Origin: a virus
Lineage: Duplodnaviria; Caudoviricetes
IMG/VR virus record: IMGVR_UViG_3300025270_000009
Span: 37,853 to 101,852 of that record
Strand: one strand, 5' to 3'
Length of the DNA: 64,000 nt
Below, one piece after another: positions 9,897 to 58,156 of the stretch. Made by a program: the position numbers and the translations under genes. Position 1 is the stretch's first letter. Every line of letters starts with the position of its first letter. Below the pieces are notes generated by a model, which saw nothing but the letters and a program-made list of their open reading frames with translations, did no database searches and had not been told where the DNA came from.

Positions 9897-9920
9897 AGGT
9901 ATCTCAGCGATGAGATACCT
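9897..9920. promoter_or_regulatory. perfect operator copy upstream of capsid gene
   Basis: aggtatctca-gcga-tgagatacct, perfect 10-bp arms. Confidence 0.85.
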
Positions 9921-17961: not shown

Positions 17962-17981
17962 GTATCTCAATTATGACATAC
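17962..17981. promoter_or_regulatory. operator copy between divergent ParB and helicase genes
   Basis: gtatctcaattatgacatac. Confidence 0.85.
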
Positions 17982-18007: not shown

Positions 18008-19693
18008 ATGAGTGAAAGAGTCGTAATAGGCTCGGGAGCCGTCAAAGCCCAGGTCTTCGAGGGCTCGCGTGACGTTGAGCGCATCATAAATAAAGCGCTC
18101 AGCTACCACGTCTACGGCAGTGAGCACATGAACGAAAAAGGGGCTGCAACGGGATGGGACGGCATGAGCAGCTTTTACTCGTTCAGGAAGAAACAGTTTC
18201 CGGCCGGTTTTGCACGCTCGGTTGTGACGTCTTTGCGCAAGAAGGGTTACAACGTTATATGGAAGCAACGCCAAGCACCGGAGCCACTGGGCCCACTAAA
18301 ACCGAAAGTAGATGACTTTCCGGAAGATCCACGTTACAGCTATCAACCTGAAACGGTCAATCGCCTGGTGAAGTACCAAAAAATCATTGCGAAAGCAGCA
18401 ACCGGCGCTGGCAAGTCACGTATAGCACGTTTAGCGCATAAGCGCATCGGCAGAAAGACATTATTTCTAACGACTCGCGGCATTTTGATGCACCAGATGA
18501 AAGAAGGCTATGAAGAGTCCATCGGTGAAAAAGCGGGAATTGTTGGTGACGGCGAATGGGACGAAGTCAACGGCTTTAACGTTGGCATGGTGCAAACACT
18601 CGCTCAAGCACTGGAGCCGGCTGACCTCAAGAAAGAAACTGAGCGCTACTTCTCCAATAAAGAAGCCGAGCTCGACCGCGATGTTGAGCGAATCAAACGA
18701 GCTCGCAAGCGTCAGGGTTTTGCGCTTGGCAAAATCATGGACGAGATTGCTGACTATCGTGATAAATTCAATGAATCGCAACCAAGCTCTGAAGAAATAG
18801 AGAAAATAGTGCGTAAGCGCTATGAGCGCCAAAAAGAGCGTAATGAAAAAGCGCTCAAGTTCTTAGAGACCGTCGACCTTCTCATCTTAGAGGAGGCGCA
18901 CGAAACCGGGTCTGATAGCTATTACAAGGTTTGCAATGCGTGTAAAAACGCCATGTACCGCTTGGCACTAACCGGTACCGCCTTTCAGAAGTCTCAGGCA
19001 GAGGATAATATGCGCCTCATGGCCGTCAGCGGCCCAATTGGCATTATCATCAGCGAAAAACTGCTTATTGACCGGGGCATTTTGGCCACACCGAAGTTTA
19101 TGTTCCGTGATGTTACGGCGCCGACCAAGCTTTACCGCTCGACGGGTTACCAACGAGCTTACAAATTCGGCATTGTCGAGAACCAGTTGCGCAATGAAGA
19201 TGCGGTTATGCACGCCACACACCTCTCATCGTTCGGTCTGACCTCGATGATGCTTGTTGGCCAGAAGAATCACGGTAAGATCTTAAAGTCGATGCTTGAA
19301 GACGCCGGATTAAGGGCTGAGTTTATCCTGGGCGAAAACAGCCAGAAACAACGCCAGGCTGCGCTCAATAAACTTGGCCAGGGCAAAATCGATGTATTGA
19401 TTGGCACGACTATTCTGGATGTCGGTGTTGATGTTCCCAGTGTCGGCGCCGTCTTTCTTCTCGGTGGCGGTAAAGACGAGGTCAGTCACAGACAGCGTAT
19501 TGGTCGTGGACTGCGAGCCAAGAAGTCAGGGCCCAACATTTGCTTTGTGTTTGACTATCTCGACCGCAAGAACAAACACCTCAAAGAGCACGCGGCCACA
19601 CGCCTTAAAATCATTAAGGATACGCCAGGCTTCAGAGAGAACATTGTCGAAAACCTTGAGCCTGAAAAGTTTGGCTTTGAGAGGGCTGCGTAA
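18008..19693 (+). CDS. superfamily 2 helicase
   Basis: ATGAGKS, EEAH, LTGT, QRIGRGLR motifs. Confidence 0.92.
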   Translation: MSERVVIGSGAVKAQVFEGSRDVERIINKALSYHVYGSEHMNEKGAATGWDGMSSFYSFRKKQFPAGFARSVVTSLRKKGYNVIWKQRQAPEPLGPLKPKVDDFPEDPRYSYQPETVNRLVKYQKIIAKAATGAGKSRIARLAHKRIGRKTLFLTTRGILMHQMKEGYEESIGEKAGIVGDGEWDEVNGFNVGMVQTLAQALEPADLKKETERYFSNKEAELDRDVERIKRARKRQGFALGKIMDEIADYRDKFNESQPSSEEIEKIVRKRYERQKERNEKALKFLETVDLLILEEAHETGSDSYYKVCNACKNAMYRLALTGTAFQKSQAEDNMRLMAVSGPIGIIISEKLLIDRGILATPKFMFRDVTAPTKLYRSTGYQRAYKFGIVENQLRNEDAVMHATHLSSFGLTSMMLVGQKNHGKILKSMLEDAGLRAEFILGENSQKQRQAALNKLGQGKIDVLIGTTILDVGVDVPSVGAVFLLGGGKDEVSHRQRIGRGLRAKKSGPNICFVFDYLDRKNKHLKEHAATRLKIIKDTPGFRENIVENLEPEKFGFERAA

Positions 19694-20238
19694 TGGCTCT
19701 CAGATTTGGCAAAACAAAGAAAATCGACCTGAGCAAGCTGACAGCGAGAGAAATCACCTCTCGCTTTCACACCATTATCGGCCAAAAACACTACGAGTCG
19801 TGCTATCCAAACGTTGTTCTCGACGAATGGGGTGAGCTCGATATCCTGGCTTTTCGAAAGTCAGGTTTTGCTGATGAGTTTGAGGTGAAAATAAGCCGCT
19901 CCGACTTCAAGCAGGACTTCAAAAAGACCTGCCATTTCGAAAGGCGTGGAGACGACACGCGCAGAAAGCACAGAAACCCGGTTCGCGACAAACACGGCTG
20001 TCTTGAGGCCGGAGACTGTCTGCCCAACTATTTCTGGTTTGTGACTCCCAAGGGGCTCTTAAAACCCGAAGAGATTCCGGAATACGCCGGTCTTATCGAA
20101 GTCAGTGAGCTCGGCATCCCACACTTCATAAAGTCGGCGCCGAGACTGCACAGGCACAAGCTCGACCCGGAGAGACGGTACTACATTGCTCGAAAACTAA
20201 GCTTTCGGTACTGGGATATGATAAAAAAGAGTTTTTAG
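19693..20238 (+). CDS. PD-(D/E)XK nuclease (MmcB-like)
   Basis: ELDIL..EFEVKISRSDF..NYFWFV. Confidence 0.7.
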   Translation: MALRFGKTKKIDLSKLTAREITSRFHTIIGQKHYESCYPNVVLDEWGELDILAFRKSGFADEFEVKISRSDFKQDFKKTCHFERRGDDTRRKHRNPVRDKHGCLEAGDCLPNYFWFVTPKGLLKPEEIPEYAGLIEVSELGIPHFIKSAPRLHRHKLDPERRYYIARKLSFRYWDMIKKSF

Positions 20239-20241
20239 GGG

Positions 20242-20270
20242 TTTACACGGTATCTAAATGCTGAGATACT
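20242..20270 (+). promoter_or_regulatory. sigma70 promoter overlapped by operator (20250-20269)
   Basis: TTTACA-17-GATACT; operator gtatctaaatgctgagatac. Confidence 0.7.
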
Positions 20271-20276
20271 ATTTCC

Positions 20277-20430
20277 AGTTCAACAACATGACGACCTGTT
20301 GAGCCATTTGAATTCTCCACAATTCAGACGTATTACCAAGTCCTTTTGGTTAATTTTAAATCAGAGCCTTGCTTTGTGCACCGCGCACACTAGCTGAATG
20401 AAGCCCCTTTCGCCATGAGGGGCTTTTTTT
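20277..20430 (+). ncRNA. candidate multi-hairpin antisense sRNA (sRNA-1)
   Basis: Promoter, four small hairpins (three with anti-RBS-like loops), CCUUGCUU..GCUGAAUG boxes, terminator agcccc..ggggcttttttt. Confidence 0.7.
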
Positions 20431-20501
20431 ATTGCTGTCTATTGACCCCCTATCTATTTCATTTAGCATTGTCCGTGAATTCACAGAAACGGACTAACTG
20501 T

Positions 20502-20816
20502 ATGAAAAAACTACTATTTATTGGAACATTAACCCTGACACTGGCCGCTTGTGCAACTGGTCCACGACCAATGATGGCCAATGGTGAACGCTGCAAAGAA
20601 GACTACTACTCTCCGACCGGCGTACTCATGACCTGCGAACGTCAAAAGCGACAGGCCTCGATTGAAGCCAGTGAGAAGCTCAACCGTGAGCTCATTGAGT
20701 TTGCGAGACAACAAGTGCGAGAGACTAACGAACGAACAGGGTCCAGCTCTCGCGAGTGTGATGAGATTATTATTTCAAGTAGCGGTGAAGAGCTCTGCGT
20801 TATAAAGCAACGCTAG
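20502..20816 (+). CDS. lipoprotein
   Basis: MKKLLFIGTLTLTLAAC lipobox; true start 20502. Confidence 0.75.
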   Translation: MKKLLFIGTLTLTLAACATGPRPMMANGERCKEDYYSPTGVLMTCERQKRQASIEASEKLNRELIEFARQQVRETNERTGSSSRECDEIIISSSGEELCVIKQR

Positions 20817-21258: not shown

Positions 21259-21690
21259 TTCACAATTACTCCTTCTGTCCTGTTGAGGCGAACTATATAA
21301 GAACGAGTTTTCAAATAAAACCCCTTGTTTTTTCTTTTAGAGCTTCAAAACCACGAATTTGCGCATTTTGTTGATAGATAACTGTCAATTTTCGGAATCT
21401 AAACCATTGATGGTAAAGGTGTTTTTAATTATTTCTGGAAAAGCGGCAATTTCTTGCCGAATGGGTATTTTTTAATCTGTTCGGGCTGTAACAAAATGTG
21501 ACAGTGCGAATTTTTGTTATCCGTACACGCCTAACGTTTTAACAATTATGCTCTATAAGTATTACTCCTATCATATCTACGTCTGTCTATAGGGATGAGT
21601 TGCAGCGAATTATCACACGGTTATTACCTAACATTTGTATATTGTGCATTTCTTTGTTTTTTAAGCGTCTTTTGGTGATTTCGGGTTAAA

Positions 21691-21730
21691 ACTCACTTAA
21701 GTGAGTGTTTCGTTGTAGTCACTTAAGTGA
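21691..21730. repeat. tandem palindromes TCACTTAAGTGA
   Basis: actcacttaagtgagt (21691-21706) and tcacttaagtga (21719-21730). Confidence 0.75.
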
Positions 21731-22091
21731 TTAGCCTGTTCTATAAGGGTTTTGGCGATTGTCTAACAAGTGCATTCATTAACTTTTCTTTTTTCTGACT
21801 TCGGCAATGGGTCAAGTAACGCTTCTCTGCAGCCCTTGTCAGTTCGTTCTGAGAGTCGGGTGGTCTGGTTCAAATTTATTGGTTAAGCGCCTTAAACTGG
21901 TGCAACCAGTTCTTTTCAAAACTTTACACTTTTGTGACTGCGGCCAATGCCACGAATTGACAGCCGGCTTTGAGCTTTTTGCTATACGGGTATAAGAGTC
22001 GATAACCTGGTGAGGCGGAAATTTGCCTAATTCCGTCGACCGGGTGATTTGGCTTGCTGTTTTGATTTGGCTGCTCGGGGAATTTTAGGCG

Positions 22092-22144
22092 TTTGGGTAT
22101 AAGGGTGAGTTTTCTGGTAGGCGGAAATTTGGGTATAAGGGTGA
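22092..22144 (+). repeat. 17-bp direct repeat tttgggtataagggtga
   Basis: Copies at 22092 and 22128; GGGTATAA core also at 21988, 27922 and 28020. Confidence 0.8.
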
Positions 22145-22247
22145 ATTTTTGATTGGCAGAAAATTTTGATTCCATCGGGGTCACGGCAGCTGAAAATCTC
22201 TAGGACTTTCAGTACCCGATTAAACTCTAATCATTCAATCGTTTTAA

Positions 22248-22379
22248 TCAATTCAGCATCATAATGCTATTACAAACAACAATCCCCGAAACGATCAAGC
22301 CGACAACGGATAATAAAGCGGCTTGTTTTAGTTGTTTATTGCGCTCTCTGCGCTTGATTCTCTTACTATAACGGCTCAT
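22248..22379 (-). CDS. small membrane peptide (43 aa)
   Basis: MSRYSKRIKRRERNKQLKQAALLSVVGLIVSGIVVCNSIMMLN; GGGAG RBS; ATGA overlap. Confidence 0.65.
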   Translation of the reverse strand: MSRYSKRIKRRERNKQLKQAALLSVVGLIVSGIVVCNSIMMLN

Positions 22380-22483
22380 AAAAACGCTCCCGATGACATA
22401 TAAGCTAGAGTAAAAGCAAACGGAACACCGACAACAACGAATAAAACGAATTGAGCGGCTTTCTTAGCGGTTTCTTTAATCAT
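22376..22483 (-). CDS. small membrane peptide (35 aa)
   Basis: MIKETAKKAAQFVLFVVVGVPFAFTLAYMSSGAFL; GGAG RBS. Confidence 0.65.
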   Translation of the reverse strand: MIKETAKKAAQFVLFVVVGVPFAFTLAYMSSGAFL

Positions 22484-22503
22484 TGCGAACACTCCGACCG
22501 ATG

Positions 22504-22533
22504 AAAAGAAAGAGCGGCACAGAATGCCGCTCT
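22504..22533 (-). terminator. intrinsic terminator
   Basis: agagcggca-cagaa-tgccgctct plus U-tract on minus strand. Confidence 0.65.
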
Positions 22534-22540
22534 GTTGCTC

Positions 22541-23218
22541 TTACTTGATATTGAATGCGGCTTTAAGCGTATTAAGCTTTTTAGTGTCCGCTGTCTCAGT
22601 CTCTAAAATACCGCCCCGACCGATCCAGTTGCCGAGCCCGATAAAAGCAAGTGACTTTAAAAACTCACGGCTTTGTGTCGCTGTCTTGTTGTCAATATGC
22701 TTTTGCAGCTTATCGACCGTGATCGCTTTCTTGTCGAAATTCTCTAAACAAAAACGGATCGCTTTTTCAAAGTTCGACAATTGCGGGTTGTATGTTTGCC
22801 CGTTCGCTTGTCGGGTTGTGTTCGCTTGATGTTTCGCTTTTTTCAGTGCGTTTTCTACGGTTTCACCGTGAAGAATGAAACATAAAGCGCTCATTTTTCC
22901 GTAGTTGTTGCGCTTTGCTTGCTCTGGATTTTTAGCGTGTTGTAATACGTCCGCTACTTTACCGGCAAAAGTGTAGTAGTTGTGTTGAGTAGCGGCTCGC
23001 TGTATAGCGTCAAAGTCGGCAGCGCTTTTGTCGGTTTCACTGATTTTTTGCGCTAGAGCTTCACGCTGCTTTGCTTGCTCTGTTGCAAACTCTGCAAAGC
23101 TCGGCTTTGTCTCTTCTGCTTTTTTCGCTGTCTGTTTGCGAGTAGCGGTTTTTTTCGCTGCTGCTTTTTTAGCGGTTTCTTTTGCTTGAGTTGCTTTAGT
23201 GTTTTTACGTTCTGACAT
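22541..23218 (-). CDS. hypothetical protein with K/A-rich N-terminus (putative pre-early DNA-binding protein)
   Basis: 225 aa; histone-like N-terminus; own operator-controlled promoter. Confidence 0.75.
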   Translation of the reverse strand: MSERKNTKATQAKETAKKAAAKKTATRKQTAKKAEETKPSFAEFATEQAKQREALAQKISETDKSAADFDAIQRAATQHNYYTFAGKVADVLQHAKNPEQAKRNNYGKMSALCFILHGETVENALKKAKHQANTTRQANGQTYNPQLSNFEKAIRFCLENFDKKAITVDKLQKHIDNKTATQSREFLKSLAFIGLGNWIGRGGILETETADTKKLNTLKAAFNIK

Positions 23219-23291
23219 AATAATTACTCTCTAAGTTTGATTGATTTTAAGCTGTATCGGCTCGGCTCTTTGTGCCGTGTCGATGATTCTT

Positions 23292-23319
23292 ATATTACAA
23301 CGCTGAGATATTCGATCAA
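23292..23319 (-). promoter_or_regulatory. promoter with operator (23292-23311)
   Basis: TTGATC..TG-TAATAT; operator atattacaacgctgagatat; AT-rich upstream region. Confidence 0.7.
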
Positions 23320-23539
23320 GTGCTTTTTATAGTTTTTTTTAATAAATTTGATTGTTTGATTACTTTTTAATCATTAGTATGTTTTTTAGTCATTCAGACA
23401 ATAAATATAAAGTTTTTGATTTTTTTCTATTGTATTTCAGCTAAAGCCGTGATAGTAACGCACGCACGTTAAATAAAAGTGCGAATCCTCGATGAGAACA
23501 CTCCTTATCCTCAACCACAGCCGTCACTTCTCTATACAG

Positions 23540-23810
23540 AATTCCAAGGACAAGCCCTCTCCCCTATGCTAATACAGCCTTTCCCTAACCCTGGCACAGC
23601 TCTCCCTGGCCATTCCTGTTGTCACAGCGCCAAGGTAACCAAGGCTGTTTTCTACAAATCCAAGGAAGCTCAGGTTTGCCCACGCTAACGCAGCCTTTCC
23701 CAAGTTTTACCAGGTCAGGCACTATATAGACCAAGGCAACCTTGGAGCCGGTGTGTGCTTACCAGTGGTCGGTCTATATCCCTACGCTAACGCAGCCATT
23801 CTTAAAATTT
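23540..23810. repeat. CCAAGG / CCTAYGCTAACGCAGCC motif cluster
   Basis: Motif copies at 23563, 23679 and 23781; ccaaggcaaccttgg at 23731. Confidence 0.75.
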
Positions 23811-23830
23811 GAGAGGATTGCCTGAAAAGG

Positions 23831-24026
23831 CGTGGCCGGCCAATGATAACGAAGATAACCAAAAGGACCGGCCGGCCACGATTGCCCGAAGGCAATTAGG
23901 GTTGGAGCGCTACTGAGTAAACTGAAGTAACAAAGAGAGAATGAAACCTCAGTAACGCCCCAAAAGTGGCGAGAAGGTGTAGACTGGACAGTAGTGCAAT
24001 GTGTGGGAAACTGTCTACACCTTCTC
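23831..24026 (-). ncRNA. structured RNA: three long-loop hairpins plus cUUCGg hairpin
   Basis: 11-, 16- and 14-bp stems with 28-30-nt loops; G-U wobbles and UUCG tetraloop only on minus strand. Confidence 0.7.
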
Positions 24027-24043
24027 TGAAAGAGTGACCACCA

Positions 24044-24292
24044 TCAGGCGGTCAAACGGGAATCTTGGGTAATTTTCAGCAAACCCTCATCCCTTTCAGC
24101 AGCAAGCATGAAATCAATAGCTTCAACCAGGGCCATGCTGAAAGTAAAGTAATGCTGCTCAGTTACTTTACGCTCCTGGTTAAGCGACGTTCTTAGCCTG
24201 AATTTATCCCCGACCTGTTTGATATGAGCAACCGCCTTATCACTGATATGCAGTTGCTCGCTCTCATCGGGGGTCTGGTAGACCCGCTTCAT
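24044..24292 (-). CDS. hypothetical protein
   Basis: 82 aa, GGAG RBS. Confidence 0.7.
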   Translation of the reverse strand: MKRVYQTPDESEQLHISDKAVAHIKQVGDKFRLRTSLNQERKVTEQHYFTFSMALVEAIDFMLAAERDEGLLKITQDSRLTA

Positions 24293-24293
24293 A

Positions 24294-24611
24294 TTAAGCG
24301 ACTCCGCTCACCACAGCCTGATAGCCTGTGAGCTTAGCGTTCTTTAAGCGCTCTTTTTGTGACACGAATGTACGGCTCTTAGTCAGCCCAAACAAACGTC
24401 TCTCACGCTCTGACAAGACACTGAACGGCTTAAGTCCTTCTTCTTGAAGAAACGCATAGCGTTGCTTATCCAACGTGAATGTCGCGCCATGCGAAAAGCC
24501 GTCTGACTTTAGTTGTTGTATCTGTTGAGCCGGTGTCATTGAAAGAAGAGCTTCCATGCTGACTGACAATTCCTTTTTGCTTTCACCGTTGCCAAAGATT
24601 GCTTGTTTCAT
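24294..24611 (-). CDS. hypothetical protein
   Basis: 105 aa, preceded by conserved leader. Confidence 0.75.
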   Translation of the reverse strand: MKQAIFGNGESKKELSVSMEALLSMTPAQQIQQLKSDGFSHGATFTLDKQRYAFLQEEGLKPFSVLSERERRLFGLTKSRTFVSQKERLKNAKLTGYQAVVSGVA

Positions 24612-24627
24612 TGTAAAATTCCTTCTG

Positions 24628-24715
24628 TTGCTTGCTTGTTTGCTGAATGTTGTTGAGCGATTTGCTGTCTCGCTTCAACGGTTTCTATATTACAGTGCTG
24701 AGATAGGGGAGCAAG
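24628..24715 (-). promoter_or_regulatory. leader/operator/promoter unit
   Basis: ttgcttgtttgctgaatg; operator 24687-24706. Confidence 0.75.
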
Positions 24716-24734
24716 CGAAGTTAAGAACTTAAAT

Positions 24735-24850
24735 CCCTACGCTTTCTAGCTCTACTCCAAGGACGCCTTGGTTTATACAGAACCAGTGGACGACAGGCAT
24801 TCCTACGCTAACGCAGCCAGTCCTAAAACCTGCCTTGGCAACCTTGAACC
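24735..24850. repeat. second CCAAGG-N3-CCTTGG / CCTACGCTAACGCAGCC cluster
   Basis: Copies at 24757 and 24802. Confidence 0.75.
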
Positions 24851-24916
24851 GGGTGAGAAACAAAAAAGGGCGACCGAAGCCGCCCAAACTTGCAGTGACA
24901 AGTTAAAAGACTCTGA

Positions 24917-25165
24917 TTAACGCTCGACCTCTGCGTAAACGTCCGAATCAACGTCCTGGCCAATTTCTTTCACAATATCGGTAGGAATAGGCATCAGAAA
25001 CTGAATTTTTCGTGAAATTCCGTCTTCAAACAAAACGTTTAAATGCTCTCCACCAACATATTTAATCTCCACCGGCTCCTGAGTAAACTGCTCTAACATT
25101 CGTCCGTCCACCAGATACGGTGTGGTGGTTTTCTTCATCACGTTTTTAAGGTGTTGTAGTTTCAT
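24917..25165 (-). CDS. hypothetical protein
   Basis: 82 aa; GAGG RBS; followed by UUCG terminator 24862-24885. Confidence 0.7.
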   Translation of the reverse strand: MKLQHLKNVMKKTTTPYLVDGRMLEQFTQEPVEIKYVGGEHLNVLFEDGISRKIQFLMPIPTDIVKEIGQDVDSDVYAEVER

Positions 25166-25172
25166 TCTTACC

Positions 25173-25505
25173 TCACAGTGTTATTTCTAAAAGTTCAAAT
25201 TCGAAGCTGTTGGGTGAAATGTGGTATTCAAAACCGAAGCTATCATCCAGTGCGTTTATCTCTAATGGCTTGAACACCTCCAAAGCGTTACGAGAAAACA
25301 TTGCCTTGATGTAACCCTTAAGCGTCAGCCCTGCGTCACCCGCTTCTTCACGCCAGTCTTTCTCCAGGTTTGGAGTGTGCTTCATAAGCCTTACCATAAG
25401 CTCGGGCAACGTATCTCTGTCATCGAGATCGGCAGAAAAGGTGTGCTTGTTCTCCGCATTTTCAATGTCTATCAAAACCAGCGTCTGTTGTGATTTAAGG
25501 TTCAT
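25173..25505 (-). CDS. hypothetical protein
   Basis: 110 aa; preceded by leader and operator 25540-25559. Confidence 0.75.
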   Translation of the reverse strand: MNLKSQQTLVLIDIENAENKHTFSADLDDRDTLPELMVRLMKHTPNLEKDWREEAGDAGLTLKGYIKAMFSRNALEVFKPLEINALDDSFGFEYHISPNSFEFELLEITL

Positions 25506-25691
25506 TACTCGTTCTCTCTTGCTTGCTGAATGTGAGTGTATATTACAACACTGAAATAGGCACTCAACAGCTTATCATAAACTATTTACCTCACAGCCGG
25601 CTTGGAATAGGAATAATTGTTTAGTCATTCGCTTGAACGCCTTTGTGTCAGTGTCATAATACACACTCATTCATAAAGAGAGAGAAAAACA

Positions 25692-25943
25692 ATGTCTGAA
25701 AAAGAGCCGAATTTCCTACGTGAAATCATGCAAGTGTTTATCCCGTCTACTCACAAATTTTATGAATTGAACGAGTTTGAGGACGGGAGCTTTAAAATTA
25801 CTGAGCAAACGATTGATGAAAAAATTGTAACAATTGAAGAAGCCGACCTTGTTGACTTCTACGGCGGCAAAACAATCAACTCTTACGAGAGTAAAGAAGA
25901 AGCTGTTGAGCAATTTAAGGAGCTGACATTCTCACAAATCTAA
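25692..25943 (+). CDS. hypothetical acidic protein
   Basis: 83 aa; TTGAAC..CATAAT promoter, AGAGAG RBS, UUCG terminator 25946-25972. Confidence 0.75.
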   Translation: MSEKEPNFLREIMQVFIPSTHKFYELNEFEDGSFKITEQTIDEKIVTIEEADLVDFYGGKTINSYESKEEAVEQFKELTFSQI

Positions 25944-26039
25944 GCAAGCGGCCTTCGGGCCGTTTCTTTTTTGTCAGCCGGCACCAAGGAAGCCTTGGTA
26001 TGAGTGGATTAAACAAAAAAGCGGCCGAAGCCGCCTTTC

Positions 26040-26261
26040 TCAGTCCGTTAATACATAGCAGTGCCAATAATCTCTCAAACTCACCTCTGCAATGCTCTGA
26101 TAACTTCTCATCATGGAAAAGTAATCATCCAGGTTATAAATAACGGCTTCAGGATGCTCAACCTCAACCGGCTCTTGGGTTAAGAAACTGGTTCCATCAA
26201 GCTCTTCTGCCTGTTCAAGCGTGTATTCGCTCTTAGGGAGTAATACAATTGTTGTTGCCAT
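26040..26261 (-). CDS. hypothetical protein
   Basis: 73 aa, last gene of operon, terminator 26015-26035. Confidence 0.65.
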   Translation of the reverse strand: MATTIVLLPKSEYTLEQAEELDGTSFLTQEPVEVEHPEAVIYNLDDYFSMMRSYQSIAEVSLRDYWHCYVLTD

Positions 26262-26263
26262 AA

Positions 26264-26515
26264 CTAATCCTTACCGATATTGACGTAAGTGACCCAAACC
26301 GTATCCAGGTCAATCGCCTCATCGTTACAGTCGTCCATAAACTGCGACAGAGTCATCACCTGAATATCGCAACACAGCGTATTACCTTCTTTGTTCACCG
26401 TCTCAGCAACCGCCTGAATGCTCTCAAACGGTCTGTCCTGGATTAGTTCGGCCACAGCCCGACCATCATTCACCCGAGCGGTTGGAATCAGTACTATATG
26501 CTTCTCAGACATCAC
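26264..26515 (-). CDS. hypothetical protein
   Basis: 83 aa, coupled; similar length and C-terminal W-x-x-YV to neighbour 26040..26261. Confidence 0.65.
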   Translation of the reverse strand: MMSEKHIVLIPTARVNDGRAVAELIQDRPFESIQAVAETVNKEGNTLCCDIQVMTLSQFMDDCNDEAIDLDTVWVTYVNIGKD

Positions 26516-26774
26516 GCTTCTCCTCTCTGGCCTTCACCCAACCGTAATGGTCGGCTATCGCCCTTAAAATGTTCAAAATCTCTTCTTCGCCTTTGAAAAA
26601 TCCAAAGATCGAATTGCCATGCTTAGATTGAATGTACCCCTCTAAAGCATTCACCCGATAAAAGCTGCCCTCCGGGTATTCCTCAGACAAAAACCGCCAA
26701 AAATCTGTCTCTACCATCGGAATGTTAGACGGATTGCCAGCCTTCATTTCTTCAAGAATTTTCTCTCTGTCCAT
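26505..26774 (-). CDS. hypothetical protein
   Basis: 89 aa, coupled. Confidence 0.65.
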   Translation of the reverse strand: MDREKILEEMKAGNPSNIPMVETDFWRFLSEEYPEGSFYRVNALEGYIQSKHGNSIFGFFKGEEEILNILRAIADHYGWVKAREEKRDV

Positions 26775-26777
26775 AGC

Positions 26778-27020
26778 CTACACCGCTGATAGTTCGTAAA
26801 TAACATGACCCTCACGCTCAGCCCAATCGACTAAGTGACGAGTCACCTCTGTCCAGTTCTTAGGAGCCGGTTTATCGCTTGGCCAACCGTCTCCTGCCCA
26901 AATCTCTTCCAGCTCTTCACCGTTATTCCAGTCACCGGCGATGAGAACGTTCGAGCTCTCATCCCAGTCACCAAAACAACTGATCCGGTGGCCACGATAG
27001 GTAATGACTGTTTTACTCAT
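26778..27020 (-). CDS. hypothetical protein
   Basis: 80 aa, GGAGG RBS. Confidence 0.7.
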   Translation of the reverse strand: MSKTVITYRGHRISCFGDWDESSNVLIAGDWNNGEELEEIWAGDGWPSDKPAPKNWTEVTRHLVDWAEREGHVIYELSAV

Positions 27021-27283
27021 GACGCCTCCGGATCGAAGTTAATGAACAGGTCGGCCACACTCTCGATAGCCACCCACATTTCATCAACGGTAAAGTCCTG
27101 GTAAGACTCAGCCGGTACCAAGTCACCGAAGTCGTTTGAACCATCGGGCATTTCATAAAGGGTCTTCAATGCCTGGTCAGCGGTTACCTCGTGCTCGGCA
27201 GGATTGTCACTGTCAGACACATTGTTGAAGAATAAAAGGAGTGAGCGCTTGTTGTAGGCTTCACGTATTTCATTGGCTGTCAT
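27017..27283 (-). CDS. hypothetical acidic protein
   Basis: Start reassigned to MTANE (27283), downstream of leader and operator 27319-27338. Confidence 0.7.
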   Translation of the reverse strand: MTANEIREAYNKRSLLLFFNNVSDSDNPAEHEVTADQALKTLYEMPDGSNDFGDLVPAESYQDFTVDEMWVAIESVADLFINFDPEAS

Positions 27284-27449
27284 AATAGACTCCACTTGCT
27301 GTTGCTGAATGTGCTTATATATTACATTGCTGAGATAGGCACGCAATAGCGACCGTTTATTCATATTCCTGCATAACTATCCACTATTTAAAACAAACCC
27401 TCGGGGATTTTTCTCGAAAACTGCATACCTACCCACACAAAGTGAATAA

Positions 27450-27780
27450 AACCCAAGGATTCCACGCATAAATACCCTATACAAACCCAAACCAACCAAG
27501 GACGCCTTGGATTAAACCCGACCTGCAGGTAACAGCCGGCCAAGGACTCTACATTCCTATGCTTTCATAGCCTTTCCCAAATTCTGACAGCCAAGGCTCT
27601 CTACAAACCTATGCTAACGCAACCAGTCCTGAATTCTGCTATAACTCCCTCACTCAATGTCGTTCCAAGAGCTTCACAGGCACGAGAACACGTCTAAAAG
27701 GGAAAACCTAAGCAACCATACCACCCAAGGGCTTACAATCGCTTACAGAGCGTGTCAGGCTTCCTTGGTTCAATCCCACA
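27450..27780. repeat. third CCAAGG / CCTATGCTAACGCA cluster
   Basis: ccaaggacgccttgg at 27496; motif copies at 27556 and 27608. Confidence 0.7.
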
Positions 27781-27844
27781 AGGGCTGGCAGTTATGTTTA
27801 TCACCGACTGTTGCTCACCACCGGCTGCGTGTTACTATAAACAC

Positions 27845-27920
27845 CGTCATGAAGAGCTGATTACTCTTTTTGATTATTTTAAGCTGTATTAGCCCTGGCC
27901 TCACGGTCGGGGCTTTTTTA
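27845..27920 (+). ncRNA. candidate antisense sRNA (sRNA-3) to leader of gene 22541..23218
   Basis: TTGCTC..TACTAT promoter; 8+7+14-nt identity blocks to 23223-23257; G-U-containing terminator plus U6. Confidence 0.72.
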
Positions 27921-28741
27921 TGGGTATAAGAAAAGACAGTTGGTAAATTTTTTTTGGAAATTTTGCGAGCGCCTGGTTTCCGGCTGTTTGTGCGTGTCCT
28001 GACTGGCCTGGGATTTTTTGGGTATAAAAGTTTGAGGGTCGCGCCCAATTTTTTTGTGAGGGAGCGCGTTCAACTAAACTCGTGCCTACTCCAATCACTC
28101 ACTATCTGCCTACTCTCTCAATCTCCTCTCTATACACTCGTGCCTACTCACATCATTCTCAATCGCCTACTTTCTCATTCAACAATCAATACACTCCTAT
28201 TCTACCTACTCACGCTCTCTCCCTTCATTCTCCCAATGTACACGTTATGCCTAATCACTCTCTCTATACACGTAAGCTCTCTTCTCTCCATAAGCATGAG
28301 CTCTCCCTGTACCTGTGTGAACGTTTGTTCTTCTCCGTGTGTTTCTTTGTTTTGTTTTATCGTTAGCTCCTTTACTCCTTATGATTGTTTGTTCATCCCT
28401 CCTAATGTTCGTTGTCCGTGTGAAATGTTTTTACTTTTATCGTTAGTTCCTGTCGGTCAGAACCGTTCTCCGGCTGTTACCTTTGATTGTTTTGTATTAT
28501 TGATAGCCGAGAGTTTTTGAAATTGTTTGAGGCATTTGTGTTTTGTGTAGCCTGGGTGTTTGTTGGACTTGTTTTGTGAACGGGTTATTCCTGTGTTTTG
28601 TATAGTGAGCCGGGTGTTTGCTTGTGTTTGTGAAGGGAATGCTGTGCTGAGCTTATGAGACGCTTATTTGCTTGGTTTTGTTTTGTGTTGTGAGTCAGAA
28701 TGAGAAAAGCCGACTCTAGGCCGGCTCTGTTAGGCTCTCAA

Positions 28742-28948
28742 TCATTCAAAGTCTCCCTCGAAAATAGCTCTTTTGTTGACTCTGTCCGTGACAATGTCTA
28801 CTCCGCCTGTGCTATACGGGTCGGCCTTGCATTTTTTGAAATATGATACTGCCTTCTTCTTGTCGGTCGTTCGACCGGCGTAAGTGCCTTGACCTCTTCC
28901 ATCGGCGCTTGAGCCGTCATAGAGTAGGTACCAGGTTTCTTCAATCAT
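28742..28948 (-). CDS. hypothetical protein
   Basis: 68 aa, GAGGTG RBS. Confidence 0.65.
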   Translation of the reverse strand: MIEETWYLLYDGSSADGRGQGTYAGRTTDKKKAVSYFKKCKADPYSTGGVDIVTDRVNKRAIFEGDFE

Positions 28949-29153
28949 TGTGCACCTCTAAAGCTTTCACTCTTTGACGTAGAGAGTTCACCTCTTTTAG
29001 TGCTTCATCACGCTCTTTCTCAAGCTTTGCCCTAAGCTCTTTGCAAAAATGAACGTGGCTGGCGTACTTGATGTACTTGCCTTGTTTGTGAATCTCCATA
29101 GACTCACCGTCAAAGCCTCTGATATCTCTCGATGTACAGTTAAAACGTTTCAT
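28941..29153 (-). CDS. hypothetical protein
   Basis: 70 aa, coupled. Confidence 0.6.
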   Translation of the reverse strand: MKRFNCTSRDIRGFDGESMEIHKQGKYIKYASHVHFCKELRAKLEKERDEALKEVNSLRQRVKALEVHND

Positions 29154-33409: not shown

Positions 33410-33607
33410 TTAAGCATTGGAACCTCTGTCAGTGATAACGCACGAATCCAACTTGAAGCGCTCCTGCCAAACCGCCCCGCACTCCATGCACGAACACTCT
33501 TGGTGAGCTGCTATTTGAGAGACCTCAACGAATCCACCATCCACGCTTTCTTTGCCGCATACAGGGCAAACATCGGCATCGTTTCTTGCCACTTCTTGTT
33601 CTTTCAT
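33410..33607 (-). CDS. zinc-ribbon protein
   Basis: CPVCG..CMECG; leader and operator 33633-33652 upstream. Confidence 0.7.
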   Translation of the reverse strand: MKEQEVARNDADVCPVCGKESVDGGFVEVSQIAAHQECSCMECGAVWQERFKLDSCVITDRGSNA

Positions 33608-34304: not shown

Positions 34305-34715
34305 TTAATTACCTTCAATCAAAAAGTCTTCGAGTTTATTTTGACCACTTTCGATGCTCTGCTTGATAACATCTGGAATACGACCCTGACCAGTCCAAGT
34401 CTGCCGGTCTCCATTAGAGTCTTTGTATTCGTATTTAGGCGGCAATTTCTGGCTCTGCTTTCTAACGCTTTTAGCTTCAACCAAGTCATCAACGGTAAGC
34501 CCTGCTGATTTCAATTGTTGATTGAATTCTTCTATCTTTTTAAGCTTTTCACGTTGGGCTTCGAGCTTCTGCTCATTCTCCACATGAATATCTGAGAAAC
34601 ATTCATTCACTTTGCTTTGCAATTGATCAAGGGCTTGTTCGTCCAATTGTCTCAAGTATTTCTTAAAACGATGCTTGTTGGAAATGATGCTTTCGAATTC
34701 TTCAAATTCCGACAT
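34305..34715 (-). CDS. hns: H-NS family nucleoid-associated protein
   Basis: Coiled-coil N-terminus; PKYEY..TWTGQGRIP DNA-binding motif; LEDFLI end. Confidence 0.9.
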   Translation of the reverse strand: MSEFEEFESIISNKHRFKKYLRQLDEQALDQLQSKVNECFSDIHVENEQKLEAQREKLKKIEEFNQQLKSAGLTVDDLVEAKSVRKQSQKLPPKYEYKDSNGDRQTWTGQGRIPDVIKQSIESGQNKLEDFLIEGN

Positions 34716-34766
34716 AAATGTTACCTATTTGTTGCTAGCTGAATAATCTAGGCCGTAGCCTATTTT

Positions 34767-43357: not shown

Positions 43358-43435
43358 ACCTTGCTTGTTGCTGAATGTATTTCAATTTTGACATACAAAA
43401 AGAGGCACGCAAGTGCGTGCCTCAAATTAATTGCC
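43358..43435 (-). promoter_or_regulatory. cassette boundary unit
   Basis: 49 bp identical to 45863-45911; 33 bp identical to 40912-40944. Confidence 0.9.
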
Positions 43436-45856: not shown

Positions 45857-45953
45857 GTTGTTACCTTGCTTGTTGCTGAATGTATTTCAATTTTGACATA
45901 CAAAAAGAGGCGGTCAATGCCGCCTCTTTAAATAATTGCCAAGTTATTATTTT

Positions 45954-47298: not shown

Positions 47299-47838
47299 TC
47301 AGAGCTCGTTGACAGGCACCGCCGCCATACCACAAACAAACAAATCAGCGCCCTTTTCACCCTTTTCAAAGAGCTCAAGTGCCCTTTCTTTTGTTGTAGC
47401 CACAAACGAATTAATCTCTTCGTCAAAGCGAATGCAGTAACCCTGCGCTCGCAACTTGGGACCAACCGTTTTAGTAACCGGCAGCACCTCGTTTGGCATC
47501 TGAGCTATGATCCGCTCAAAATCTGCTGAGGTCAGCTGTAAATGACCCTTTCGAGCCCTAACCAGTTTTTCAGCCAGTGCTCCGGTGACGGATTCGCTTT
47601 CTGACTCCATTCGAGACATCATAAGCTCAAGCTCTTTGTTCAGGTTCAACGCTTTGAACACCTTGAACAGCGTCTTTAACCGAACAGCCTCAGCTCGCTC
47701 AATAGCGGCAATTGACGGCTGTGACAGCCCAGTCATCGCCGCCAATTCTTTTTGTGACAGTCCGGCGCTTTTCCGCCGCTTTTGTATAAACGTGGCCAGA
47801 GCCTCAGAAAATTCTTCAAATTCCATGTTATCAACCAA
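47299..47838 (-). CDS. XRE-family HTH regulator
   Basis: RRKSAGLSQKELAAMTGLSQPSIAAIER. Confidence 0.85.
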   Translation of the reverse strand: MVDNMEFEEFSEALATFIQKRRKSAGLSQKELAAMTGLSQPSIAAIERAEAVRLKTLFKVFKALNLNKELELMMSRMESESESVTGALAEKLVRARKGHLQLTSADFERIIAQMPNEVLPVTKTVGPKLRAQGYCIRFDEEINSFVATTKERALELFEKGEKGADLFVCGMAAVPVNEL

Positions 47839-48364: not shown

Positions 48365-48464
48365 GATACACCTCTTGCTTTTGCTGAATGTTTGTATTTC
48401 GATGCTGATATACTAAACGATCCGAGTAGGCAATCAAGCGGTTTTTGATTTTGTTTTTTCCAAT

Positions 48465-48553
48465 AAAAAACCGCCTTCCCAAGCAAAAGAAAGGCGGTCT
48501 ACATTCAGCAATAGCAAGCAAGGTTTTACAAGAAGTGCAAAATCACGCTTACT
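48465..48553 (-). ncRNA. candidate master antisense sRNA (sRNA-4) complementary to conserved early leader
   Basis: TTGTCG-17-TGTAAT promoter; 25-nt seed at 48524-48500; terminator ACCGCCUU..AAGGCGGU plus U-tract. Confidence 0.75.
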
Positions 48554-48617
48554 TTGCTCATTACAGCATAAACCCTGGGCTGCGACAAGTTTTAATGCTT
48601 AATGCTGAATATCGGCT

Positions 48618-58061: not shown

Positions 58062-58156
58062 ACTACCTCTAGTGTTATTTCTTATATCGAGTTACTAAAT
58101 GTTGGGGTTTCGTAGTATCTCAGCGTTGAAATACACAATCAACCCCAAAAAACGAA

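Follow-up and report, generated by a model that had tools for sequence, protein, structure and literature searches.

The window analysed here, a stretch of 64,000 nucleotides that forms the final 64 kb of a 101,852-bp IMG/VR virus record, contains a 263-bp non-coding gap (20239-20501) between a nuclease gene and a lipoprotein-like gene. Judged from its sequence features, the plus-strand segment 20277-20432 within this gap is, on balance, the gene for a trans-acting, base-pairing small RNA (sRNA) of about 155 nt that belongs to a temperate phage-plasmid. The 3' part of this RNA, CCUUGCUU-hairpin-CUAGCUGAAUG, complements both halves of a common leader, AUUCAGCAACAAGCAAGG. The functional core would be the single-stranded stretch directly 5' of the terminator, in which GCUGAAUG would pair with CAUUCAGC in about 25 mRNAs of the phage.

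Promoter, operator and fold of the candidate RNA

The original prediction, which was made from the sequence without database searches, placed a promoter TTTACA-17-GATACT overlapped by an operator in front of the RNA, and both are present. A consensus scan gave the -35 element TTTACA at 20242-20247 and, after a 17-nt spacer, GATACT at 20265-20270 (+), which is part of an extended -10 element TGaGATACT (20262-20270, with the TG at 20262-20263); the promoter is sigma-70-like, and the transcription start site of the RNA would lie near A20277. The operator, a 20-bp palindrome GTATCTAA-atgc-TGAGATAC at 20250-20269, overlaps both the promoter spacer and the -10 element and is one mismatch away from the consensus GTATCTCA-N4-TGAGATAC of a family with the pattern GTATnTCA-N4-TGAnATAC. 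Genome-wide, this family has 26 sites at up to 3 mismatches versus 0.47 expected from shuffles, and 45 sites at up to 4 mismatches versus 4.3 expected. Examples are found at 9899-9918, 17962-17981, 45882-45901 and 58115-58134, and the family is also present in front of structural genes. The palindrome was found in the distant relatives L014, L016 and L020 as well, the helicase of L016 being only 52% identical. Operator-like sites on the plus strand (23292, 24687 and 27319) also lie within 21260-29100, a region of about 8 kb with few long open reading frames (ORFs).

Three promoter arrangements, differing in the position of the palindrome relative to the -35 and -10 elements, can be read from the operator sites, with class assignments and start sites inferred from spacing. 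In the class to which the sRNA promoter belongs, the spacer is taken up by the palindrome, whose last bases form the -10 element (GATACT or GATAGT), as they do at 58134, 50421 and 49121 (-). A second class consists of about 15 "early cassette" promoters, in which both an extended -10 element (TGTCAAAAT) and the start site are covered by the palindrome, and in the third class the palindrome precedes TAATAT or TACTAT. In the early-gene cassettes (about 31.7-54 kb, minus strand) we also observed that the hairpin of the preceding terminator contains the -35 element (TTGCGT or TTGACC) in its 3' arm or loop, for example at 43377-43423 and 45882-45927, so that the terminator of one cassette doubles as the promoter of the next. 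The only Xre-type helix-turn-helix (HTH; Xre/HTH_3) protein found in the genome has 179 amino acids (47299-47838, minus strand), and its gene is the second in an operon that opens with an operator and the leader motif (48394-48413). This protein is a candidate, possibly autoregulated, repressor for the operator family.

Folding of 20277-20432 (+) by RNAfold gave four hairpins with an energy of -43.4 kcal/mol (z -4.08), and none of 200 shuffles folded as well. The hairpins were those of the original prediction, which had given the loops ACAUGACGACC, CUCCAC and GUCCUU and the UGUGC/GCACA hairpin. All the following elements are on the plus strand. Hairpin 1 (20278-20304) has an 8-bp stem including one G-U pair and an 11-nt loop, and its 5' arm is like the sense leader (AGUUCAACAAC compared with CAUUCAGCAAC). 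Hairpin 2 (20307-20328), likewise with an 8-bp stem including one G-U pair, carries the loop CUCCAC, and hairpin 3 (20335-20350; ACCAAG/UUUGGU) carries the loop UCCU, which becomes GUCCUU if the closing G-U pair is opened. An A/U-rich single-stranded linker, UUAAUUUUAAAUCAGAG (20351-20366), is unpaired in both the minimum free energy (MFE) and the centroid folds and leads to the first half of the seed, CCUUGCUU (20367-20374). Then follow hairpin 4 (UGUGC-ACCGC-GCACA, 20375-20389) and the second half of the seed, CUAGCUGAAUG (20390-20400). The RNA ends in an intrinsic terminator (20401-20432) with a strong 10-bp stem (GCCCCU/AGGGGC) followed by U7; a scan placed it at 20400-20426 plus the T7 run, in agreement with the prediction (20401-20430).

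Other identities of the unit were considered. The plus strand holds a 4-codon and a 32-codon TTG ORF and the minus strand a 12-codon ORF; when the sequences were compared by reading, no ORF of the unit was kept in L006, and a protein-coding unit was ruled out because neither strand has a conserved ORF. An RNA from the minus strand was also ruled out, by the z of only -0.75 for the opposite strand, by its poor T-run and by the G-U pairs specific to the plus strand, which are used in three stems and become C-A mismatches on the other strand. A search ruled out a tRNA or tmRNA. Rfam gave no match in the whole window at gathering thresholds, and the best sub-threshold matches on 20200-20520 scored 13-21 bits versus cut-offs of 38-65; those inside the RNA (20356-20432) cover its 3' end and terminator, and the others fall on the promoter region. 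Membership in any Rfam family was ruled out, since no score reached the gathering threshold. Among the computational checks proposed with the original prediction, RNAfold gave a strong plus-strand fold and Rfam gave no family.

Three of the features by which Hfq-type sRNAs are recognised can be found here at the sequence level: the unit has its own promoter and its own 3' end without a conserved ORF, it has a terminator with a U-tail and an A/U-rich single-stranded part beside a hairpin, and the complementarity between its seed and the targets, described below, is above chance, with two lineages only.

Complementarity to the shared leader

The leader core, ATTCAGCA, occurs in 33 copies on the minus (coding) strand and in 2 copies on the plus strand, with 1.7 expected, and about 27 copies sit 10-35 nt 5' of start codons. 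The full leader of the cassette class is AUUCAGCAACAAGCAAGGUAA(N4-6)AUG; in a class-B cassette start (45857-45901, minus strand), the operator GTATGTCA-aaat-TGAAATAC is followed by the leader AUUCAGCAACAAGCAAGGUAACAACAUG. Because some copies are found at internal ribosome-binding sites (RBSs) without any promoter, as in an H-NS-like gene and in a gene starting MKVIAIINPKGGVG, the motif is an RNA-level element. In front of the Hfq-like gene of the phage (see below), roughly 20-30 nt separate the likely start site from the motif that follows it, implying that the motif is an mRNA element and not just the +1 region. The Hfq-like protein of L020 is only 56% identical, yet ACATTCAGCAATAAA is kept upstream of its gene with differing flanks. 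The gene starting MKVIAIINPKGGVG, which encodes 229 amino acids and lies outside the window (genome 12615-13304, minus strand), has its leader core directly abutting the Shine-Dalgarno (SD) sequence; reading by eye makes it a candidate ParA-like gene.

The reverse complement of the leader is CCUUGCUUGUUGCUGAAU, and the sRNA reads CCUUGCUU-(UGUGC ACCGC GCACA)-CUAGCUGAAUG-terminator. Thus, the first half of the seed complements AAGCAAGG, the SD-proximal part of class-B leaders, and GCUGAAUG of the second half pairs with CAUUCAGC of the common leader. The original prediction had described exactly such a seed, split by a hairpin and antisense to the common leader, and cofolding bore it out. With the cassette leader at 45857-45901, the cofolding free-energy difference (ddG) was -18.0 kcal/mol, and GCUGAAUG:CAUUCAGC and CCUUGCUUU:AAGCAAGG were paired; hairpin 4 was kept, extruded once both halves of the seed had paired with the leader, and the complex formed a three-way junction. 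The ddG was -19.6 kcal/mol for the leader at 33607, -19.5 for the ParA-like gene, which was the second-best predicted target, and -18.1 for the leader of the H-NS-like gene. The last is an example of a target with an exact 10-mer. The gene (34305-34715, minus strand; Pfam Histone_HNS_N and Histone_HNS) has the leader AUUCAGCUAGCAACAAAUAGG...AUG at 34716-34744 (-), and CTAGCTGAAT is found exactly at 34735-34744, as had been claimed, 20 nt upstream of the ATG, where CUAGCUGAAU of the second seed half pairs at 10 of 10 positions; counting a G-U pair, the match extends to 11 nt.

The cofolding energies of 137 crude gene starts (translation initiation regions, TIRs) were compared with those of 250 coding-interior controls. 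The energies of 10 TIRs did not exceed the 1% percentile of the controls, and those of 21 TIRs did not exceed the 5% percentile (Mann-Whitney p 1e-4). Almost every member of this group of 21 has the leader motif, and almost every one pairs with the 3' part of the sRNA up to about 20400, so that TIRs with the leader dominate the predicted targets. When the RNA body was dinucleotide-shuffled, 7 of 2000 shuffles reached the observed duplex energy with a 30-nt leader.

Matches of other parts of the RNA were closer to chance. We counted about 52 matches of 10 nt or longer elsewhere versus about 41 expected, which is chance, and three 13-mer matches versus about 0.6 expected, both expectations being estimates, the first made from sequence lengths. 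The 13-mer GTCCTTTTGGTTA, to which attention had been drawn, does recur on the opposite strand at 23856-23868, but near chance and without conservation. Similarly, the claimed match of loop 1 to gene 37383 exists at 10 of 11 positions, but its ddG of -11.1 does not reach the 5% control cut-off of -12.6, and it is not conserved. Single-target roles of loop 1 and of the 13-mer were therefore rejected. As for the proposal that the hairpin loops act as anti-RBS elements, the "anti-SD+AUG" loop of hairpin 1 is absent from the diverged relatives described below, a CCAC loop recurs there on a different stem, and the loops of the two lineages have only their C/U-rich character in common (CUCCAC and UCCU in one, CCUC and CCAC in the other); this idea is weak.

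The seed-terminator layout is found a second time in the genome. A second candidate anti-leader RNA, "sRNA-4" (48465-48612, minus strand), has a promoter TTGTCG-17-TGTAAT, a seed and a terminator, and no operator was seen at it. Its seed is a contiguous 22-nt anti-leader sequence, CCUUGCUUGCUAUUGCUGAAUG, immediately before the terminator, and in a genome-wide duplex scan it paired best with the leader among all non-trivial sites (-32.5 kcal/mol), a site being trivial if it is just a leader read on the opposite strand. The repeated occurrence of a seed followed by a terminator argues against a random relic.

Conservation and competing explanations

The genome is that of a phage-plasmid distantly related to the SSU5/pHCM2 phage-plasmids. 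Its helicase shares 42-45% identity with the helicases of these elements, of Pseudomonas phage nickie and of Rhizobium phages, and the gene order ABC-ATPase, ParB, ParB (-), helicase (+), small gene and lipoprotein gene is the order of SSU5. Exact-protein look-ups found near-identical relatives (L005, L007 and L008) and diverged ones (L004, L006 and L017). Amino acid identity between the diverged lineage and the window is 86% for the nuclease, 84% for the helicase and 54% for the lipoprotein, and the coding DNA is about 76% identical.

The diverged lineage retains the junction between the nuclease stop codon and the promoter, the -35 and -10 elements, and the operator as GTATCTCA-aaac-TGAAATAC. 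Promoter and operator are identical at 26 of 31 positions in L004, L006 and L017, and the RNA body is largely unalignable. The terminator is also kept, with a compensatory change of a U-A pair to a C-G pair. The body of about 95 nt between them can otherwise barely be aligned; the CCAC loop is kept at the place of hairpin 2 on another stem (ACGU/ACGU, not GAAUU/AAUUC), and UCUUUUG of the hairpin 3 region is retained. Directly 5' of the terminator stands UUGCUGAA(U/A), an exact complement of the leader core, and UUGCUGAAU adjoins the terminator. In both lineages, therefore, the seed is at the same place, abutting the terminator, and the leaders of the diverged lineage have the same AUUCAGCA motif. 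Only 4 of 2000 shuffles of the diverged (type B) body reached its duplex energy with the 12-nt core.

At the corresponding position, outer relatives have a terminator only (L016) or a 60-nt gap (SSU5), and ATTCAGCA was not found on the coding strand of L016 in the 17.7 kb examined. Judging by these very few genomes, unit and leader tag seem to co-occur in a single sub-lineage. When phage and plasmid collections were searched with the DNA of the region, no match exceeded about 67%, a value reached in the helicase gene; viral and metagenome contigs, scanned for exact patterns of the seed and terminator or of the stop-promoter junction, gave no match; and protein-seeded scans of viral and genome contigs gave nothing syntenic. 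The distant nuclease homologues P0002 and P0004 stand in unrelated contexts, and L014 (helicase 69%) stops short of the region.

Several observations weigh against the interpretation of the unit as a trans-acting sRNA. The start site is placed by a consensus match only. The diverged lineage has neither hairpin 1 (a 22-nt gap) nor the block of CCUUGCUU and hairpin 4 (a 39-nt gap), and these parts, including the CCUUGCUU half of the seed, are thus not core features. The diverged RNA cofolds only weakly with its own leaders (ddG -5 to -10), and its MFE fold pairs the seed with a leader-like 5' part of the same molecule, UCAGCGA. For the RNA in the window, too, the MFE fold leaves only part of the seed free, because AGC pairs with hairpin 4 and UGAA pairs with the U-tail. 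Nothing can be learned from the near-identical copies: L005 differs from the window over the whole unit by a single T indel in the linker, and 28% of 195-nt stretches differ between the two genomes at no more than one position. Only two sequence types of the RNA occur in the collections searched, too few for a covariation statistic, and the stems show one compensatory pair, in the terminator. The leader copies are one repeat, and the "targets" therefore represent one complementarity and not independent hits. By plain duplex energy, the locus ranks about fourth or fifth genome-wide among the non-trivial sites. Moreover, an inverted duplication of the leader may have left the seed behind as a relic.

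The alternative that survives best, which we nevertheless consider unlikely, is that the region is only the 3' untranslated region (UTR) and terminator of the helicase/nuclease operon together with the decayed remnant of an early cassette, with no trans function; the operator may then serve only as a further repressor site, or it may act as a roadblock and so shield the lipoprotein gene, which is constitutively expressed. The gene upstream, at 19693-20238 (+), encodes an MmcB-like nuclease of 181 amino acids (PHROG 2776/5429, with PF06319 in some homologues) and closes the helicase operon (18008-20238), and no terminator is found between its stop codon at 20238 and the sRNA promoter. The unit is therefore also the 3' UTR of this operon, although such a 3'-UTR form is compatible with an sRNA. 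The ancestral layout, a terminator or a 60-nt gap, and the fast-evolving body with its large indels likewise speak for this alternative, and the 5' end of the RNA, which is like the sense leader and whose CAACAACATGAC recurs at real gene starts, suggests descent from a cassette. On the other hand, a remnant explains poorly why the -35, the -10 and the operator have been kept while the body has not, and why the lineage without the other parts should have retained the anti-leader block, in a version (UUGCUGAAU) that matches the leader complement even better. The unusually structured plus strand and the second unit, on the other strand with the same layout of seed and terminator, also speak against a remnant.

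It is improbable that the RNA acts mainly as a decoy or sponge and not by pairing with mRNAs; in that case its leader-like 5' end and U-rich parts would titrate a leader-recognising factor or the Hfq-like protein, or it would sponge the sRNA at 48465-48612. Its 5' end, AGUUCAACAAC, mimics the sense leader, the leader-like UCAGCGA of the diverged relative pairs with its own seed, and the phage encodes both an Hfq-fold protein and a second RNA with a 22-nt anti-leader sequence that could be sponged. However, the mimic is imperfect (about 11 of 14 positions) and locked in hairpin 1 in this lineage, and the best-conserved element of the body is the antisense block, not the sense block.

The least probable alternative is that the unit serves the downstream gene as its 5' leader or attenuator, with transcription usually stopping at 20430 and regulated read-through raising the expression of the lipoprotein in lytic growth: promoter, structured 150-nt leader, terminator and gene do share one orientation, 72 nt separate the terminator from the ATG, and 20356-20432 weakly resembles the terminators of Thr/Phe leaders, but the scores of 19-20 bits are far below the cut-offs of 55, the strong terminator (10 bp, U7) has no antiterminator pairing in the MFE or centroid fold, the anti-leader complementarity is left unexplained, and the gene has its own conserved promoter, TTGACC-16-TAGCAT (20442-20469, +), between the terminator and the ATG. 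This promoter, found by a consensus scan, is without an operator, and its -35 element is kept in relatives. The gene itself (20502-20816, +; 104 amino acids) is syntenic with the lipoprotein gene of SSU5, and its product has the lipobox LAAC. The lysogen probably expresses it, and exclusion is one function that it could have there.

Proposed role and relation to known systems

Returning to the sRNA that we favour, we propose that it would be transcribed from its own sigma-70-type promoter, with the 20-bp palindromic operator lying over the spacer and the -10 element. About 25-45 transcription units of the phage have the same operator on their promoters, so a single dimeric DNA-binding protein, for which the Xre-type HTH protein is the candidate, would switch the RNA and the early genes together. 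Read-through from the helicase/nuclease operon could also yield the RNA, in its 3'-UTR form. In this lineage, CCUUGCUU would pair with AAGCAAGG beside or over the SD sequence, and hairpin 4 would be extruded to complete a three-way junction. Translational repression and destabilisation of early and maintenance mRNAs would be the most likely result, amounting to a delayed negative feedback or an early shut-off, and the targets would include the H-NS-like gene, the ParA-like gene and the phage's own Hfq-like gene. Repression is favoured here because the CCUUGCUU half of the seed covers the AAGG/GAGG SD region; protection of mRNA 5' ends is the alternative. Since the sRNA promoter is wired like the early promoters, the circuit may be an incoherent feed-forward loop, in which derepression would fire the early genes together with the RNA, and the RNA would then limit the translation or stability of leader-tagged mRNAs.

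Pairing would probably be helped by the host Hfq, by an Hfq-fold protein of the phage, or by both. An 89-amino-acid Hfq-like ORF lies outside the window (genome G000 20187-20456, which is L018:1435-1704, minus strand), directly upstream of a 441-amino-acid DnaB-like helicase gene, and has its own leader with ACATTCAGCAATAAA. Its AlphaFold model (AF2; predicted local distance difference test score, pLDDT, 84) shows a helix (31-37) and five strands, and in a Foldseek search with this model all 28 distinct entries among the matches listed were Hfq, with template-modelling (TM) scores of 0.7-0.8 by target. The ORF itself is below the Pfam cut-offs (LSM, 18.2 bits versus 23.4; Hfq, 16 versus 27), and 16 of its 46 homologues match Pfam Hfq, the best with E 2.8e-7. 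The structural model thus predicts an Hfq/Sm fold for this phage-encoded protein. No ProQ/FinO protein was found in the genome.

More tentatively, these parts may form a self-contained post-transcriptional regulon, which we regard as possible but clearly less secure than the sRNA itself. It would comprise a leader tag, AUUCAGCA, on about 25 mRNAs, two anti-leader sRNAs and the phage's own Hfq-fold chaperone, and would set the timing or dosage of early and maintenance functions. One sRNA (20277-20432) would be switched by the operator and the other (48465-48612) would be free of it, and the mRNA of the chaperone would itself be tagged.

In Hfq-type trans-encoded sRNAs of Gammaproteobacteria, such as SgrS, the seed lies just 5' of the Rho-independent terminator. 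The RNA described here is like Hfq-type sRNAs, including those of phages, in having its own promoter, stem-loops, an A/U-rich linker, a single-stranded seed, a terminator with a U-tail and a size within the known range of about 60-230 nt, and in its short imperfect pairing near the RBS. It differs from them in that it has no sequence or Rfam relationship to them, its predicted targets are about 25 of the phage's own mRNAs reached through one leader and not host genes, its seed is split by a hairpin, its promoter carries a phage operator, and the phage has its own Hfq-fold protein.

Among phage-plasmids, the c4 antisense RNA of the immI region of P1/P7, which Citron and Schuster are said to have described in 1990, is reportedly processed from the very transcript that it regulates, acting on one operon (icd-ant); two short separated blocks are said to pair with the mRNA leader and block the RBS, and the operators of P1 are said to be scattered over its genome. 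The present case is similar in being a phage-plasmid with dispersed operators and a small RNA with two blocks complementary to an mRNA leader, and differs in having its own promoter, many dispersed targets and no sequence similarity. The CI RNA of P4 is reportedly an immunity factor cut from a leader transcript (work attributed to Forti and co-workers, 1995), which is said to cause premature termination through two sites in one operon. It shares with our RNA a small size, a phage-plasmid origin, a complementarity to repeated leader sites and the control of early genes; the RNA in the window would instead address about 25 separate leaders and pair beside SD sequences, and no homology was found. 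In T4, the proteins RegB, a nuclease, and RegA, a repressor, shut off early mRNAs post-transcriptionally. This is a functional analogy only, one phage factor acting on a short motif in many early TIRs, and the factor here is a predicted RNA, not a protein.

Phage-encoded sRNAs are only now being mapped; P1 c4, P4 CI and P22 sar act on one operon, and others on a few host genes. To our knowledge, no phage has a genome-wide RNA "master switch" on top of its repressor/operator network. While the architecture of the RNA is thus a known one, that of Hfq-type sRNAs, none of the systems compared is related to it in sequence or addresses a leader shared by a whole set of genes, and what would be new is therefore the targeting of a shared leader. 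Examples of phage-encoded sRNAs include LPR1/PreS of lambda (bioRxiv 10.1101/2024.10.31.621285) and DicF (PMC5069750). The prophage sRNA HnrS is reported to target hha, the mRNA of a silencer of the H-NS family (PMC13502914), and in this respect it resembles our RNA, whose predicted targets include an H-NS-family mRNA.

The analysis also defines operator and promoter classes for a poorly studied marine branch of the SSU5-like phage-plasmids. If the proposed role is true, the phage-plasmid studied here would have an RNA-level master control of its early genes, with one RNA addressing a tag on about 25 transcripts. The RNA would be wired to the same operator as its targets, among them an H-NS-like silencer, a ParA-like partition protein and an Hfq-fold protein. 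With one seed, one leader motif and two sRNAs, this would be a compact and testable system, suited to the study of feed-forward control, split-seed three-way junctions and virus-encoded Sm/Hfq chaperones, and it would show how a large temperate element can coordinate its early gene output post-transcriptionally.

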